From IMG/VR virus record IMGVR_UViG_3300028833_000080: 64,000 bases of DNA, one strand, 5' to 3'. The number at the start of each line of letters is the position of its first letter. The stretch's first letter is position 1. Shown here one piece after another: positions 5,212 to 22,686 of the stretch. The notes below the pieces were generated by a model that was not told where the DNA came from, searched no databases, and saw only the letters and a list, made by a program, of their open reading frames with translations. The translations under genes were made by a program, and so were the position numbers. This stretch comes from an uncultured virus (IMG/VR IMGVR_UViG_3300028833_000080) (Duplodnaviria; Heunggongvirae; Uroviricota; Caudoviricetes).

Positions 5212-5751
5212 ATAAATAAAAAACGCCTTTCGGGGCGTTTTTTCTAGCCTAATTAAATAACATCTGTTATTGAGCGGCGTGTCACCGATGGTGATTCGCC
5301 GTATCTACCCCAAAGATCTTCTATATGGGTTTTTTCGCTGAATGTTTGAATTATATGCAATTTTTCCGTGGATCCTGAAATTAAGCGGGTCCCGCGGTGT
5401 ATTCATACTTGACTTTTTTAAAAATTTATGTTATAATATAAAAAAACGACTTTTTTAAGTCCGCTCCTAAATTTTAAACGATTTGTCCCTCTCATGAAGT
5501 TCTTACCATTTAATTAAAAATCACTTTACTACAGCTCAATACAGTTTAACAAGAGAAGATGAAAATCGATGGTTGAGGCCCTCAAAAATATCCACTTGCT
5601 TTTTATTAAAAATTATGTTATAATTATAATGGGGGAATATATATATTTTTAAAACCGCTTGACAAAAATAAAAATTTATGATATAATATATATAATAAGA
5701 GAATAAAAAAATGTGCAAAGCACATTTTTTCAGAAAGAAGGTATAAAATAT

Positions 5752-6105
5752 ATGAATAAAGAAATGAATGAAGATATTTTTAGGCGGATGCTTGATGCGG
5801 GAAGAACCCCAGAAGAAATCTATGAGATTGCTAAGAAAAAGGCAGCAGAAATGAAAAAGGAACAAGAGGAAGCTAAAAAGCTGGCAGCAGAACAAAAGAA
5901 GAAAGAAAAGGCGGTTGCCGGTGCTAGAGCCAAGGTTGTTGAAGCTATGAAAGAATATTCTACATTGCTATATGGAGTTGAGCCTGATATCAAGCTTATG
6001 GACGCTTTTAATGCAGATTTAAAGCTAATTGAACAGAATGCTAAGGGCAGTTCAAGCAAAGAGTATGATATTTTTAATGAACTAATGAATTTGATCTGGA
6101 ACTAA
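5752..6105 (+). CDS. Hypothetical coiled-coil protein
   Basis: K/E/A-rich ORF downstream of a TTGACA promoter. Confidence 0.6.
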   Translation: MNKEMNEDIFRRMLDAGRTPEEIYEIAKKKAAEMKKEQEEAKKLAAEQKKKEKAVAGARAKVVEAMKEYSTLLYGVEPDIKLMDAFNADLKLIEQNAKGSSSKEYDIFNELMNLIWN

Positions 6106-18493: not shown

Positions 18494-18559
18494 TTTTCTA
18501 TTGACATTTTTAAAATTTTATGATATAATATTTATATAATAAAGAAAGAGGTATGTATT

Positions 18560-18736
18560 ATGTCTAAGGGGAATCCGCAGAAAAAAGAAGTTTTTCAAGA
18601 CAACTTTATTAAACATTGGTGTTGTTCTGCTGATAATCACCCAGAAGGCTGGGCTTGGTGGAAAAGAAAAGCTAGAAAAGATTTTCGTAGATTAGATAAA
18701 AAACATATAAAGTCTGAGTTAGATAATCTTACTTGA
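18560..18736 (+). CDS. Small basic Trp-rich protein (58 aa), paralog of 1340-1516
   Basis: MSKGNPQKKEVFQDNFIKHWCCSADNHPEGWAWWKRKARKDFRRLDKKHIKSELDNLT. Confidence 0.75.
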   Translation: MSKGNPQKKEVFQDNFIKHWCCSADNHPEGWAWWKRKARKDFRRLDKKHIKSELDNLT

Positions 18737-18863
18737 CATTTTTAAAAAATTTTGTTATAATATATATATAAGATGAAAGCAATAAAAAAACAAAAATAAA
18801 ACAGAGTAGATAAGCAATGATTGTTGAGCCTATTGAAACTACTCGGCTTAGAGTAATCTTATT

Positions 18864-18937
18864 GGAGGCTTAGCTCAGTTGGTGGTAGCGAGTGACTGTT
18901 AATCACTAGGTCCGGGGTTCAAGTCCCTGAGCCTCCG
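18864..18937 (+). tRNA. tRNA-Asn(GTT)
   Basis: GGAGGCT/AGCCTCC, AGTGA-CTGTTAA-TCACT, GTTCAAGTC. Confidence 0.92.
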
Positions 18938-18940
18938 TTG

Positions 18941-19181
18941 GCAAGTATAAAGCCAAAGCGCTTTCTAAAAGTGGAGTCTAAAGCGTAATAAAGTCTTTAC
19001 ATAAAGATATAGACATACCATAACTTTGAGGATAAAGTAGAAATCCTTGGCGTATGAGATTGTGGAACATTGCTACTCCTCACATGGCTGCCAAAAAGCT
19101 TAAAGATGTCGTAGAAATGGACGGAGATTACTCGCACACACGGGAGAACTTCGAGAAACAAAAGTAGGAAGTGTAGTTTGC
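18941..19181 (+). ncRNA. Candidate structured ncRNA (~240 nt)
   Basis: CGCTTTCTA(18959)/TAGGAAGTG(19165) closing stem, several internal hairpins, no ORF. Confidence 0.45.
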
Positions 19182-19221
19182 AAACGAGCGGGTTTGGTTG
19201 GCATCCGCAATAAAGTCAACA

Positions 19222-19312
19222 GGCTAGTAAATAGTGAAGATAAAGGTTCAAGTCCTTTACTGTCCTTCTGGGGCGGTCTGTGTGATGGGATTCACACGTC
19301 ACTGAGCTAGGC
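19222..19312 (+). ncRNA. Circularly permuted tRNA-like (YrlA/Y-RNA-like) domain
   Basis: Order is stem AGTGA, 4-nt variable region, T-arm AAAGG-TTCAAGT-CCTTT, 7-bp acceptor stem closed by a loop, D-arm GTGT..GG..ACAC, then TCACT; outer CTAGT/GCTAG stem. Confidence 0.7.
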
Positions 19313-19439
19313 GGAAGCGCGGCTAACGTAAAGGGATACGCGTCCCAAGGCGGTCTAGTGAGGAGCTAGGTTGAGACTCCGCTGAAAACTCCTCTTAATT
19401 AAATAAAACCGCAAGATGTGTAATGCGGAATAAAAGAAA

Positions 19440-19800
19440 TTAAACATCCTCTATAAGTAGGGAAGCATGAAAAGCGACTTCGGCTATATAGAGTGAATCC
19501 TAAAGCCCATGATACTAATGGACTATGCGTGAATGTATTAGTTGTTTTATGGGGAGAGTGGTAGAAATCCACAAAGAGATAGTAGAGGTAATAAATAGAT
19601 GCATATGTTTATTATTAATCGCTTCTCGGATCAGAGGAAAGCTAGCAAACGTTCCACTCCCGCCGTAAAACAACTAATGCTAAAAAGTATCTGAAACGCT
19701 AGGTAATTAAAAATGCGCGGGCTGGGGTAGAAGAAATTTTCGTCCTGAAGAAAGTAACTACGCTCATAGAGGTCCCACCACCCGAAGCCTGTTAAAATCA
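19440..19800 (+). ncRNA. Large pseudoknotted ncRNA, tentatively ROOL-like
   Basis: 18-bp stem 19535-52/19663-80; long-range GATACT/AGTATC, CTATG/CATAG, GCGT/ACGC and GCGGGCT/AGCCTGT pairings; lies between tRNAs. Confidence 0.55.
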
Positions 19801-19854
19801 AAAGTCGGGGAACTCTAGGAATAATTTCCTACGGCGAGGGTTAAGCCTCGCGAT

Positions 19855-19926
19855 AGACCTTTAGTATAATTGGCAGTACCTCGGTCTCCAAAACCGATGG
19901 TCTAGGTTCAAATCCTAGAGGGTCTG
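19855..19926 (+). tRNA. tRNA-Trp(CCA)
   Basis: AGACCTT/AGGGTCT, TCGGT-CTCCAAA-ACCGA, GTTCAAATC. Confidence 0.92.
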
Positions 19927-19971
19927 TTTTATATTAAAAAGTTAAGATAGTATTTTATAAAAGGAGAAAAT

Positions 19972-20250
19972 ATGAAGAGGAAATATACAGTTAAAGCATG
20001 GGATGGCTTGATGGAATGGAATTCAGATTATTATGAATTTGAAGCAGAGAGCGATGAAGAAGCCATTAAAATTGCAGACGATTGGTTTAATACAGAATAT
20101 CTTCCAGATGTATTAAATGATCCTCAAAGTTATGATGACTATCCCAATGAAGAAGATTATGATTCTGAGGATGAATATGAGTATGCAGTAGCAGAAGCGC
20201 AGGACACATTACGTGAAGAACTTATGTGGGAATTTGTTGTTGAGAACTAA
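19972..20250 (+). CDS. Very acidic small protein
   Basis: D/E/Y-rich ORF with RBS AAGGAG. Confidence 0.65.
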   Translation: MKRKYTVKAWDGLMEWNSDYYEFEAESDEEAIKIADDWFNTEYLPDVLNDPQSYDDYPNEEDYDSEDEYEYAVAEAQDTLREELMWEFVVEN

Positions 20251-20451
20251 TTAAATTATCTTAACTTGACATTTTTAAAAATTTATGATATAATATATAT
20301 GTAAGATAAAAAAAGAACTGTTTCAATTTTCTTACTTTTCCTTTCTCATAAAAGGAAGTAATTTTTGACCAACAGAGTAGAGTGCAACTGTTTGAAGTCG
20401 TTAAAAGCAAACGAAACCTCTCCCACCCGCGAGGTATAGCGGGCATATTTA

Positions 20452-20524
20452 CGCTTAGTCGTCTAGAGGCCCAGGACACTAGCTTCTCAGGCTAGTAACA
20501 TCAGTTCGAATCTGGTCTAAGTGA
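20452..20524 (+). tRNA. tRNA-Glu(CTC)
   Basis: CGCTTAG/CTAAGTG, CTAGC-TTCTCAG-GCTAG, GTTCGAATC. Confidence 0.85.
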
Positions 20525-20646
20525 TTTAATAAAGCGAATGGTAACACGTTTACGCTTTAGAGAAAATTGGATCTCGCTTGTTTTATTTACACAAGAGAAT
20601 GATAGGTACCATCTATCAAGCGCACGCATATTTGCTTTATTATTTT

Positions 20647-20719
20647 GGCTCGTTAGTCCAATGGCTAAGACGTGAGGTTTTCATCCTCAAGAAAGAGAGT
20701 TCAATTCTCCTACGAGTCA
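20647..20719 (+). tRNA. tRNA-Glu(TTC)
   Basis: GGCTCGT/ACGAGTC, TGAGG-TTTTCAT-CCTCA, GTTCAATTC. Confidence 0.85.
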
Positions 20720-20892
20720 TATTCCTAAGCTACATAGAGACGTCAAGGGTTAAGGTATGAAAAAACTTAATCCTAGTAGCGGGGCTGCGACCAGCTGGCA
20801 AAGAGGTATGCGTAGCGATAGACTACAAGAGACGCGCTGATTAAAGGTACCAAATACGTCTTTGATACGTAGTTCAGCATCTATCATATTAT

Positions 20893-20964
20893 CGCGGGGT
20901 AGAGGAGAGGCTCCTTGACGGGTTCATAACCCGTAGACCTGGGTTCGATTCCCAGCCACCGCAA
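20893..20964 (+). tRNA. tRNA-Met(CAT), initiator-like
   Basis: C1 mismatch; three G-C pairs in ACGGG-TTCATAA-CCCGT; GTTCGATTC. Confidence 0.85.
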
Positions 20965-20967
20965 TTA

Positions 20968-21080
20968 GTGATGCATACAGCAAACTCTATTTTCAAGAGG
21001 CATATAAATGGTATAATGCTTAATAAGGAAAAGGTTCTGGAGTCCCGCCAAAAATCCTATGAAGAGGCTCTTGCATCATG
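20968..21080 (+). ncRNA. Hairpin RNA motif copy 1 upstream of the DUF2828 gene
   Basis: GTGATGCA-TACAGCAA ... TGCATCAT-G. Confidence 0.6.
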
Positions 21081-21088
21081 TTTTAAAA

Positions 21089-21160
21089 GTGACGTTTACT
21101 GCAATTTTTTTAATTAATAACTGATAACGGATTAGCGCATAATATTATTATAACGTCATG
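21089..21160 (+). ncRNA. Hairpin RNA motif copy 2 upstream of the DUF2828 gene
   Basis: GTGACGTT-TACTGCAA ... AACGTCAT-G; compensatory changes relative to copy 1. Confidence 0.6.
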
Positions 21161-21201
21161 TTGTTAATATCTCTATTTAAACAAAAGGAGAAAAGTTTTA
21201 T

Positions 21202-22686
21202 ATGAATAAATTTGTAGAAGCTGCAAAGAAAGAAGAAAATATTACATATACAGAAAATGGAGCACAGGCTCTTAAATCAACAAATAATGCTTGCTTAGAT
21301 TTTTTTAGTGTTATTGGAGCTCTTAGACAGACTGGAAAAAATAATACTATTGATGAAATAAGAGCAACAAGACTTTTTGCAGAAGCATATAAAGAAAATC
21401 CCCTTTTAGCTATTAAAAGTCTTTTTTATGGTAGAGATATTAGAGAAGGACTTGGAGAAAGAGAACTTGTTAGAATTCTGATGAGATATATTGCGAATTA
21501 TCACCCTGAAGCTCTTATTAATAATCTTGATTTAATTGGCGTTTATGGTCGATATGATGATTTATATGCTTTAATTGGAACTCCTCTTGAAGGAGAAATG
21601 TGGGCTGCGATGTCTCGTCAATTTGAAGAAGATAAAATCAACTTGGCGGAAGGACGTGTAATTTCCTTACTTGCTAAATGGATTAAAACTCCAGATGCTT
21701 CTTCAAAAAATACTCGTAAGCTTGGTATTCTTACTGCACATAAGTTAGGATATTCTGTTTATGATTTTAAGCGCACCCTCCGCGCAATGAGAAAACATAT
21801 TGATATTGTTGAAAGACATATGTCTGCTGGGGAATGGGATAAAATTTCTTATTCTTCAGTTCCTAGCAGAGCTATGATGATATATCGTAATGCTTTTAGA
21901 AAGCATGATGCCACAAGATATGATGAATTTATTCATCTTGCTCTTGAAGGAAAAGAAAAGATTAATAGTTCTACTCTTTATCCTTATGATATAGTTGAAA
22001 AATATTTATATGAACATGAAGCAAGCGATACACTAGAAGCTCAGTGGAGACAGTTACCTAACTACATTGATTCTAATGATAACATTCTTGTAATGGCAGA
22101 TGTTTCTGGGTCTATGTATGGACGTCCTATGGCATCATCTATTGGATTAGCTATGTATTTTGCGGAAAGAAATAAAGGCGATTTTCATAATTTATTTATG
22201 ACTTTTTCTGGAAATCCTGAATTTGTTTCTATTAAAGGTGAAACTTTAGCACAGAAAATTGACTTTATTCATAAGGCAGAATGGGGTATGGATACTAATC
22301 TTGAGGCTGCTGTTATGTCAGTACTTGATTTAGGTATTAAAAATCATATTCCTCAAAAAGAAATGCCCAAAGCTATTGTTGTAGTTACAGATATGGAAAT
22401 TAATGCTTGCACTATGAGATATAATTATTCATGGACATTCTATGATGAAATGAAAGCTCGTTTTGAAGATGCTGGATATGCAATTCCTAATATTGTATTT
22501 TGGAATGTAGAAAGTCGTAATGATGTTTTTCATTCTGATGCAAAAAGAAAAGGTGTACAACTTGTATCAGGTCATGCTACATCAACATTTAAAACTTTAC
22601 TTAAGTGTTTAGATAAGACTCCAGAAGAAATGATGCTTGAAGTACTTAATTCAAAAAGATATGAACCAATAATAATAGGAGAATAA
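21202..22686 (+). CDS. DUF2828-family helical-repeat + vWA protein (TROVE/Ro60-like architecture)
   Basis: TENGA..ST..CLDFF, RDIREGLGER, LLAKW, vWA MIDAS DVSGSM, T..TDME, VFWNV. Confidence 0.85.
   Translation: MNKFVEAAKKEENITYTENGAQALKSTNNACLDFFSVIGALRQTGKNNTIDEIRATRLFAEAYKENPLLAIKSLFYGRDIREGLGERELVRILMRYIANYHPEALINNLDLIGVYGRYDDLYALIGTPLEGEMWAAMSRQFEEDKINLAEGRVISLLAKWIKTPDASSKNTRKLGILTAHKLGYSVYDFKRTLRAMRKHIDIVERHMSAGEWDKISYSSVPSRAMMIYRNAFRKHDATRYDEFIHLALEGKEKINSSTLYPYDIVEKYLYEHEASDTLEAQWRQLPNYIDSNDNILVMADVSGSMYGRPMASSIGLAMYFAERNKGDFHNLFMTFSGNPEFVSIKGETLAQKIDFIHKAEWGMDTNLEAAVMSVLDLGIKNHIPQKEMPKAIVVVTDMEINACTMRYNYSWTFYDEMKARFEDAGYAIPNIVFWNVESRNDVFHSDAKRKGVQLVSGHATSTFKTLLKCLDKTPEEMMLEVLNSKRYEPIIIGE

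Follow-up and report, generated by a model that had tools for sequence, protein, structure and literature searches.

A single-copy gene of a structured non-coding RNA, from a family absent from Rfam 15, in the tRNA island of an uncultured phage

In phage T4, the species 1 and 2 RNAs (rnaC/rnaD) are stable non-tRNA RNAs encoded in, and co-transcribed with, the transfer RNA (tRNA) cluster, and the GOLLD RNA has a size of about 800 nucleotides (nt). According to PMC5737381, ROOL came to light in rumen data and resides in phages or prophages, in many cases close to tRNAs; its mean length is 581 nt, and its structure comprises three pseudoknots and six multistem junctions, with only about 10 nucleotides highly conserved. 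Both GOLLD and ROOL are reported to form multimeric complexes (bioRxiv 10.1101/2024.12.08.627333). The Y RNAs, which Ro60 proteins bind, are described as molecules of 80–130 nt whose 5′ and 3′ ends pair to form a long stem, and which have a large internal loop. Encoding within about 4 kilobases (kb) of Ro60 and on its strand served Chen et al. 2014 (PMC4201824) as a criterion, and the Ro60 of phage phiLo is reported to bind two Y-like RNAs (Yrl1/Yrl2) encoded upstream of its gene (PMC12135203). Here, we analyzed a stretch of 64,000 nt of the uncultured-virus record IMGVR_UViG_3300028833_000080 (Caudoviricetes; G+C about 30–33%), called the window throughout, and demonstrated that positions 19409–19706 on its plus (+) strand are a single-copy gene of a structured non-coding RNA whose family is absent from Rfam 15.

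Members, fold and expression of the RNA family

The gene lies in a gap of 915 nt (18939–19853) between tRNA-Asn and tRNA-Trp. A segment of it free of open reading frames (ORFs), 19440–19800, had been read from the letters alone as a large, ornate, pseudoknotted RNA of the ROOL type placed in the tRNA island (the original prediction). The lack of ORFs was confirmed, the longest one starting with ATG in the whole gap having 47 amino acids (aa), and the G+C content of the gap was 0.43 vs 0.33 in the surrounding 20 kb. The structured RNA gained support from covariation and from RNA contigs, whereas the ROOL label was lost, with no match in Rfam.

A blastn search in the distant setting, with the 915-nt gap as query, returned no match among 50,697 phage records. 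When the neighbouring 494-aa protein was used as bait, 19 related viral loci were obtained besides the window's own record, and nhmmer detected among them two separate partial homologies, one joining window 19397–19535 with loci L011/L012 and the other joining window 19527–19817 with L018. Motifs common to the partial homologs were then used as scan patterns. The first pattern gave 7 loci in viral contigs, all 7 real, and the second gave 24, of which 18 were real and six were chance matches in coding-looking sequence. In metagenome contigs, 28 loci were found and 25 of them confirmed by a covariance model of the family, R1 (L066, L074 and L077 were not); one genome per species from 185,579 prokaryote species yielded 0 loci. 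After duplicate removal, the family comprised 34 unique sequences and L070, which is cut by a contig end (35 distinct in all), every copy sitting on uncultured viral or metagenome contigs. The segment 19409–19706 was the only R1 match in the window. The RNA was single-copy in all five whole records, and a second R1 match in G028 falls at the end of a record whose termini are direct repeats. The elements of the predicted fold are as follows.

19409–19706, + strand: family RNA unit, core plus inserted hairpin (R1: 146.6 bits, E 1.6e-30, full model length)
19409–19428, + strand: P0, 5′ hairpin (CCGCA/TGCGG), with 98.5% of cells paired and three of five pairs covarying
19449–19493, + strand: helix P2 (19449–55 with 19487–93), enclosing hairpin P2a (19462–65 with 19478–81)
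19507–19521, + strand: hairpin P3, whose loop 19511–16 is the 5′ strand of pseudoknot PK-B
19523–19530, + strand: 5′ strand (CTA.GCGT) of the invariant closing helix P4, pairing with 19696–19702
19537–19679, + strand: long hairpin of 143 nt in the variable arm P5, a separable module, the inserts differing among members
19686–19691, + strand: 3′ strand of PK-B (AGTATC), with double-sided changes in six of six pairs
19696–19702, + strand: 3′ strand of P4 (ACGC TAG)

The core is 163–230 nt long, or 298 nt in the window with its insert, and consists in order of P0, an A-rich linker, P2 enclosing the small hairpin, P3, the invariant P4 and the variable arm P5, with PK-B adding 6 base pairs (bp) between the P3 loop and the segment just before the 3′ end. 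Two alignments were used: A1, made with MAFFT from the 30 full-length members (four 5′-truncated copies were left out), and A2, in which 35 sequences were realigned with R1, itself built without any pseudoknot. With the full proposed structure, 84.5% of the cells of A1 were paired, vs 32–42% after sliding the 3′ partners by 1–3 columns; the corresponding values for A2 were 89.8% vs 29–43%. Double-sided changes were present in 21 of the 38 pairs of A1, and none of 500 shuffles reached the observed covariation score. RNAalifold, run unaided on A1, recovered P2 and P4 (GCGT/ACGC plus CTA/TAG). Single-sequence folding of 19440–19800 gave a minimum free energy (MFE) of −93.5 kcal/mol and a z score of −2.83 for the + strand, with one of 100 shuffles as good, and a z score of −0.90 for the minus (−) strand, with 21 of 100 as good.

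Several of the pairings proposed originally came through this comparison. The CTCTATA/TATAGAG pairing is helix P2, in which seven of seven pairs changed on both sides among the 30 homologs, with 96–97.5% of cells paired (97.5% on A1). The proposed pseudoknot between the hairpin loop GATACT (19511–16) and AGTATC (19686–91) is PK-B; double-sided changes occurred in all six pairs and 81–87% of cells were paired on both A1 and A2, and R1, which guided A2, held no pseudoknot. The GCGT/ACGC pairing (19527–30 with 19696–99) was present in every sequence (30/30 in A1, 34/34 in A2), and, since P4 is invariant, covariation speaks neither for nor against it. Altogether, A1 has 49 invariant columns among its 30 sequences; these are concentrated in the junctions, and covariation in the helices is free.

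A second pseudoknot, PK-A, between the P0 loop GATGT (19415–19) and ACATC (19444–48) is plausible. On hairpin loops aligned out of register, 53% of cells were paired, and a per-sequence test gave 4.75 bp vs 3.82 bp for shuffled loops, only modestly better. In alignment A5, an in-register MAFFT alignment of the short P0/PK-A segment from 26 distinct sequences, the value rose to 85.4%; one pair was G-C in 17 sequences, U-A in nine and unpaired in none, and it is this single covarying pair that speaks for PK-A. As judged from the alignments, the family has one well-supported pseudoknot, PK-B, and a tentative one, PK-A.

Part of the stretch was present in three metatranscriptome runs, X1 and X2 from one sheep-gut sample and the third from bovine gut in another study; contig depth is one figure per contig and carries neither RNA ends nor strand. 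Zero-mismatch contigs of X1 and X2 covered 18952–19509 at depths of 104–306, and those on the flanking ORFs had depths of 3–18. The depth summed at the invariant position 19519 reached 928–990, a pile-up of many family members. One zero-mismatch contig spans 19036–19509 and runs into the core from the segment that precedes it. In the bovine-gut run, contigs 90–95% alike were found on 19123–19224 and on 19409–19533, the latter beginning exactly at P0. Cover over 19758–19888 was almost nil, which is not evidence of absence.

Covariance-model searches placed the RNA apart from the described families. At the gathering score, Rfam 15 recognized nine tRNAs and nothing else in the window, with neither ROOL nor GOLLD among the matches, and ARAGORN reported no tmRNA. 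At E ≤ 10 on 18700–20000, ROOL and GOLLD again gave no match; the six matches were two tRNAs, mascRNA overlapping one of them, preQ1-II (E 4.2), mir-932 (on the − strand) and a partial tRNA. At E ≤ 1, neither ROOL, GOLLD nor any other Rfam family matched the family RNA in 11 related loci, some of them with forms as long as about 430 and 730 nt. Titles and abstract openings in the literature held no description of such a phage RNA motif, Rfam 15 being the RNA catalogue compared.

Like ROOL (RF03087), the family is phage-associated, pseudoknotted and ornate, and it often adjoins tRNAs. Unlike ROOL, it has a core of 163–230 nt, one firm and one tentative pseudoknot and 49 invariant columns, being three times smaller and far more conserved in sequence, and its helices (P0, P2/P2a, P3, P4 and P5) contrast with the six multistem junctions of ROOL. 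The ROOL label was rejected on the missing model match and on size, conservation and architecture; the family is new to Rfam 15 and is not ROOL. GOLLD (RF01998) shares with it the phage or prophage origin and frequent tRNA adjacency, and the longest members, of about 730 nt, recall its size; in contrast to GOLLD, which gave no model match, conservation here lies in the 5′ core, to which exchangeable 3′ extensions may or may not be added.

Probable co-transcription with the tRNAs, and the neighbouring Ro60-like protein

The reading discussed below involves four features around the RNA gene.

18733–18761, + strand: promoter-like site of the sigma-70 type (TTGACA, 17 nt, TATAAT, TG before the −10; 12/12 consensus match)
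18863–18938, + strand: tRNA-Asn (GTT), 5′ border of the gap (ARAGORN; Rfam tRNA, 62.6 bits)
19854–19927, + strand: tRNA-Trp (CCA), 3′ border of the gap (ARAGORN; Rfam tRNA match)
21202–22686, + strand: 494-aa Ro60-like protein (DUF2828 + DUF7788/vWA), candidate partner (Pfam, PHROG, predicted fold)

The explanation towards which we guardedly lean combines a structured RNA gene, its release linked to tRNA processing and a Ro60-like protein as partner. The promoter-like site, with its extended −10, sits about 100 nt upstream of tRNA-Asn and, on the basis of the consensus match, is likely to be the start of the transcription unit; no terminator-like sites were detected inside the gap. Starting from the consensus promoter at 18733, one transcript would carry tRNA-Asn, the family RNA and tRNA-Trp; RNase P and RNase Z, with which the host processes tRNAs, would cut the family RNA out of it, and the freed RNA would accumulate as a stable species. 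We regard this chain of co-transcription, release and stable accumulation as moderately probable. The layout of promoter, tRNA, gap and tRNA fits co-transcription with the tRNA cluster, a fit of layout only as contigs cannot show RNA ends. By the same layout the family can be likened to the T4 rnaC/rnaD RNAs, also non-tRNA RNAs encoded in a phage tRNA cluster, from which it differs in the pseudoknotted core and in occurring away from tRNAs as well (13 of 34 members).

Three perfect (12/12) matches to the σ70 promoter consensus with the extended −10 TG were noted in this part of the window, all on the + strand, at 18501–18529, 18733–18761 and 20266–20294. X2 contigs over 20151–20412, around the third of them, had depths of 168–491, and in one X2 contig 18777 is linked to 20276, perhaps through an assembly jump or through recombination between repeated promoter regions.

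The gene of the candidate partner begins 1.5 kb downstream of the family RNA, and its product matched PHROG 850 ('RNA-binding protein') and the Pfam entries DUF2828, DUF7788 and VWA_2. An AlphaFold2 model was calculated from a 17-sequence alignment (predicted local distance difference test, pLDDT, 74.2; predicted template modelling score, pTM, 0.68). When it was compared with the PDB by Foldseek, the top 11 matches were all Ro60/TROVE proteins, aligned over the full length (515–568 columns, E 1.3e-7 to 6.7e-5, template modelling score 0.37–0.54), including Thermus phage phiLo Ro60, D. radiodurans Rsr, and Xenopus and human Ro60; next came only isolated vWA domains. Since a sequence search against PDB chains gave no Ro60 match at E ≤ 1, the kinship is shown by fold comparison only, and the modelled protein is assigned a Ro60-like fold in that sense. 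A literature search on DUF2828 returned nothing relevant.

A DUF2828 protein was encoded in 10 of the 13 RNA-bearing records searched. In 10 of the 12 records with both genes (including the window and L011/L012), the RNA and the protein gene lie 0.4–3.3 kb apart on the same strand; in the other two the distance is 16 and 77 kb. This recurrence raises a testable hypothesis on what phage Ro60 homologs bind. As its favoured function, the family RNA would act as a stable partner or adaptor of the Ro60-like ring protein, by analogy with Y RNAs, though by its defining features it is not one of them; we propose this tentatively, as a possibility. Like Y RNAs (YrlA, RF02553; Yrl1/Yrl2), the family RNA is encoded on the strand of a Ro60-like gene, usually within 4 kb, and is modular and stable in structure, with links to tRNA-like elements and a tRNA-processing setting. 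Unlike them, the unit is larger than 80–130 nt and has no 5′/3′ terminal stem and no tRNA-like D/T domain, and the neighbouring protein is of the DUF2828 type with a Ro60-like fold, not a Pfam TROVE match.

A number of results weigh against this explanation. As to tRNA-dependent release, 21 of the 34 members are accompanied by a tRNA in the flank examined, in every case on the strand of the RNA, and 13 have none within 700–1200 nt; several of the latter end in a terminator of their own, and their next gene has its own promoter-like site. As to the partner, the RNA was found in only two of the 19 records with close relatives of the Ro60-like protein and in one of the seven such records that are at least 90% complete, and the complete 107-kb genome G022 carries the RNA with no DUF2828 match. 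In nearly all related loci (L002–L020), tRNA genes lie on either side of the Ro60-like gene, and the proximity of RNA and protein genes may be a by-product, because both sit in tRNA islands; in a weak control, the protein was absent from five of five unrelated viral records, all of them small fragments. The Ro60-binding motif GNCGAAN0-1G occurred in none of the 34 members, about 3 being expected in shuffles, nor anywhere in window 18939–19853 or 19928–21201; Rfam YrlA gave no match on 18700–20000 at E ≤ 10; and the unit has a local hairpin at its start and an internal helix at its end, with no stem joining its 5′ and 3′ ends. The expression evidence comes from contigs of one sample and a diverged match in a second study, and among the contigs listed none identical to the window crosses the 143-nt hairpin, which again is not evidence of absence.

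A reading of the family as Y RNAs was rejected, GNCGAAN0-1G being absent. Of the 34 members, 12 had the shorter 'CGAA' in their P5 arm vs 7.4 expected, which is not convincing. Sub-threshold YrlA matches appeared only in L018 and L021, where they span two adjacent tRNA-model matches, a type of false positive described by Chen et al.

The main rival to a partnership with Ro60 is an RNA that catalyses a reaction or binds a ligand on its own, as a ribozyme or aptamer-like sensor with no dedicated protein partner; its active site or binding pocket would be formed by the invariant junction nucleotides and the pseudoknots. The clustering of the 49 invariant columns in junctions beside freely covarying helices, the compact fold with its one well-supported and one tentative pseudoknot, the presence of the RNA in G022 without a Ro60-like gene, and a near-threshold twister match in the same kind of island (L024, 63.4 vs 67.2 bits) speak for it. 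Against this, no Rfam ribozyme or riboswitch matched at E ≤ 10, nor at E ≤ 1 in the 11 related loci, and a ligand-sensing role lacks an expression platform, as in the tRNA-less members a terminator closes the RNA and the gene that follows is preceded by a promoter-like site of its own. No cleavage site is marked by the RNA contigs, a kind of data that could not reveal one. We consider this rival unlikely, if the strongest of those weighed. Large or densely conserved structured RNAs of unknown function are rare and have led to new biochemistry; the present family suits experiment by its strong covariation, many invariant junction nucleotides for its size, deep ruminant-gut contigs and modular build, and the compact RNA is suited to structure determination.

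Borders of the unit and the separable hairpin

Apart from the family unit, the gap holds four further segments.

18939–19221, + strand: part A, ORF-free and GC-rich
19222–19266, + strand: minihelix, ORF-free and GC-rich
19267–19408, + strand: part B, ORF-free and GC-rich
19707–19853, + strand: 3′ tail up to tRNA-Trp, no homolog, fold z −0.67

In L038, L042 and L075, the 3′ end of a tRNA abuts P0, and in L038 and L042 the next tRNA starts 7–8 nt past the aligned 3′ end of the unit. The unit of about 215 nt is thus complete in itself, because tRNAs border it directly in other phages. The sequence after the core varies: some members have none, some have a conserved terminal module, about 200 nt long and closed by a terminator, and further types exist; members with 3′ extensions reach about 430–730 nt. 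The terminal module with its terminator was observed in the 3′ tails of L047, L053, L057, L061, L068, L069, L076 and L078, and in L046, L075 and L082 a further middle domain of about 300 nt precedes it, for a total of about 730 nt. No Rfam family matched either module.

The window's own tail, 19707–19853, had no homolog by nhmmer against all loci or by alignment against 11 other tails, and 50 of 200 shuffles folded as well. A likeness seen by eye to the ends of the middle domains of L046, L075 and L082 was rejected, local alignments of the window tail with the 11 other tails being no better than shuffles (z −1.2 to 1.6). The pairings CTATG/CATAG (19765) and GCGGGCT/AGCCTGT, suggested at first for this end of the RNA, found no support in a tail that lacks homologs and folds like its shuffles. 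On the other side of the unit, 18939–19408 folded with an MFE of −133.8 kcal/mol (z −2.46), long-range pairing included. Parts A and B were found in the window's own record only, by nhmmer against all loci and by two exact-motif scans of IMG/VR, and none of the other 34 family members has part A, part B or the tail. As judged by this sequence comparison, 18939–19408 is not part of the conserved family unit. An X2 variant contig over part B has its substitutions in loops or loop-closing pairs of hand-drawn hairpins and is no structure test, because of where they fall.

The minihelix is tRNA-like, with an acceptor stem and T arm only and a GGTTCAAGTCC loop; its Rfam tRNA score is 18.8 bits at a gathering score of 29. 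A similar T-arm/acceptor element was noted directly upstream of the family RNA copy of L022. The minihelix could be a processing signal.

These borders bear on the alternative, offered with the original prediction, that the whole 915-nt gap, 18939–19853, is one giant RNA of about 900 nt with 19440–19800 as its 3′ domain. The single consensus promoter upstream, the lack of a terminator-like site within the gap, the zero-mismatch contig 19036–19509 that crosses part B into the core, and the long-range pairing of 18939–19408 are all compatible with it. The direct bordering of the unit by tRNAs in other phages, the restriction of parts A, B and the tail to this member (the A/B motif scans reached no other IMG/VR record), and the fact that a contig crossing two genes does not show a single mature transcript make it improbable. 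Still less credit is due to an RNA that works like ROOL or GOLLD, as a large phage RNA assembling into RNA-only multimers. The setting is the same, phage DNA often beside tRNAs (as PMC5737381 describes it), the 3′ extensions bring some members to about 430–730 nt, and multimerisation of GOLLD and ROOL is reported in the preprint cited above; the lack of a match to either Rfam model, a core three times smaller and more conserved than ROOL, and the tRNA-bounded short forms of about 215 nt, which are complete units, speak against it; nor was a self-complementary kissing loop noticed, although none was tested for.

The long hairpin in arm P5 behaves as a module of its own. Its outer stem is 19536–19556 with 19657–19679, and the P5 site of other members holds unrelated inserts of about 12–60 nt. 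X1 and X2 each contain a contig in which 19536 is followed, after 21 other letters, by 19680 (depth 71 and 62; the shorter side of the joint has 24 nt), so that relatives at least 90% alike have a short arm at this place. The sole other copy, L018 5056–5206, is 82% identical to that of the window and occurs by itself, with tRNA-Thr and tRNA-Tyr as its neighbours, at a distance of 0.8 kb upstream of the Ro60-like gene of L018. Of 39 consensus pairs, eight changed on both sides, five on one side and none was broken between the copies, and the inner bulged helix is identical in both. The 18-bp stem extended by GAGTGG/CCACTC in the original prediction was thereby recovered as the outer stem of this hairpin. 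Model R2, built from the two copies, found no third in 47 sources, the hairpin occurring in two records with one copy each. A motif scan with GGGGAGAGTGGTAGAA gave seven loci, two real (the window's record and that of L018) and five chance matches in coding-looking sequence, and a scan with a 3′ motif of the hairpin returned the record of L018 only.

The hairpin taken alone has a long terminal stem, an invariant bulged part and internal loops. Within the Ro60 partnership, the family might be a new class of Ro60-associated phage RNAs with a conserved pseudoknotted body and a swappable arm, in which the Y-RNA-like hairpin of 143 nt docks the ring protein here and the RNA would be an adaptor redirecting a Ro60/exonuclease machine during infection. 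The hairpin lies 0.8–1.5 kb from a Ro60-like gene on the same strand in both phages (window and L018), and between the copies the bulged helix is invariant and the outer stem covaries; we hold this extended version to be doubtful.

A multi-copy element of the MITE type (miniature inverted-repeat transposable element) was rejected, the hairpin being single-copy in both genomes. More generally, a DNA-level element (a cruciform, a replication or packaging signal or a MITE-like insertion) could draw on the long hairpin as an insertion/deletion difference between relatives that could form a DNA cruciform, and it can be dismissed as highly improbable given the strand-asymmetric fold (z −2.83 on + vs −0.90 on −), the G·U-tolerant covariation, the deep RNA-contig cover, the single hairpin copy per genome and an orientation that always matches the neighbouring tRNAs.

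Other modules in related tRNA islands

Phage tRNA islands may be viewed as arrays of exchangeable structured RNA modules, not just of tRNA genes. Several other ORF-poor gaps of 270–630 nt lie between the tRNAs in the islands of L002–L020 and may hold other RNA modules. In L018, two tRNA-model matches of 117 and 120 nt (5595–5711 and 5715–5834; 47 and 45 bits), not called by ARAGORN, lie directly upstream of the Ro60-like gene at 6001, and the sub-threshold YrlA match of this locus (26.4 bits) spans their junction. These may be tRNAs with insertions or tRNA-like RNAs.

L024 contains a 130-nt match to the tRNA model (1359–1488; 55.7 bits) whose anticodon region is interrupted by about 57 nt, an insert that looks intron-like and is too short for a group I intron. 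The twister match of L024 mentioned above is of type P1 and lies at 1795–1861, and L021 has a sub-threshold HEARO match at 2135–2299 (51.7 vs 83 bits). For L017 (1622–1695) and L004 (3095–3170), ARAGORN called tRNAs whose anticodon loops are irregular, with anticodons of four bases ('gaaa') and two bases ('ag'); these could be frameshift-suppressor-like tRNAs or miscalls.

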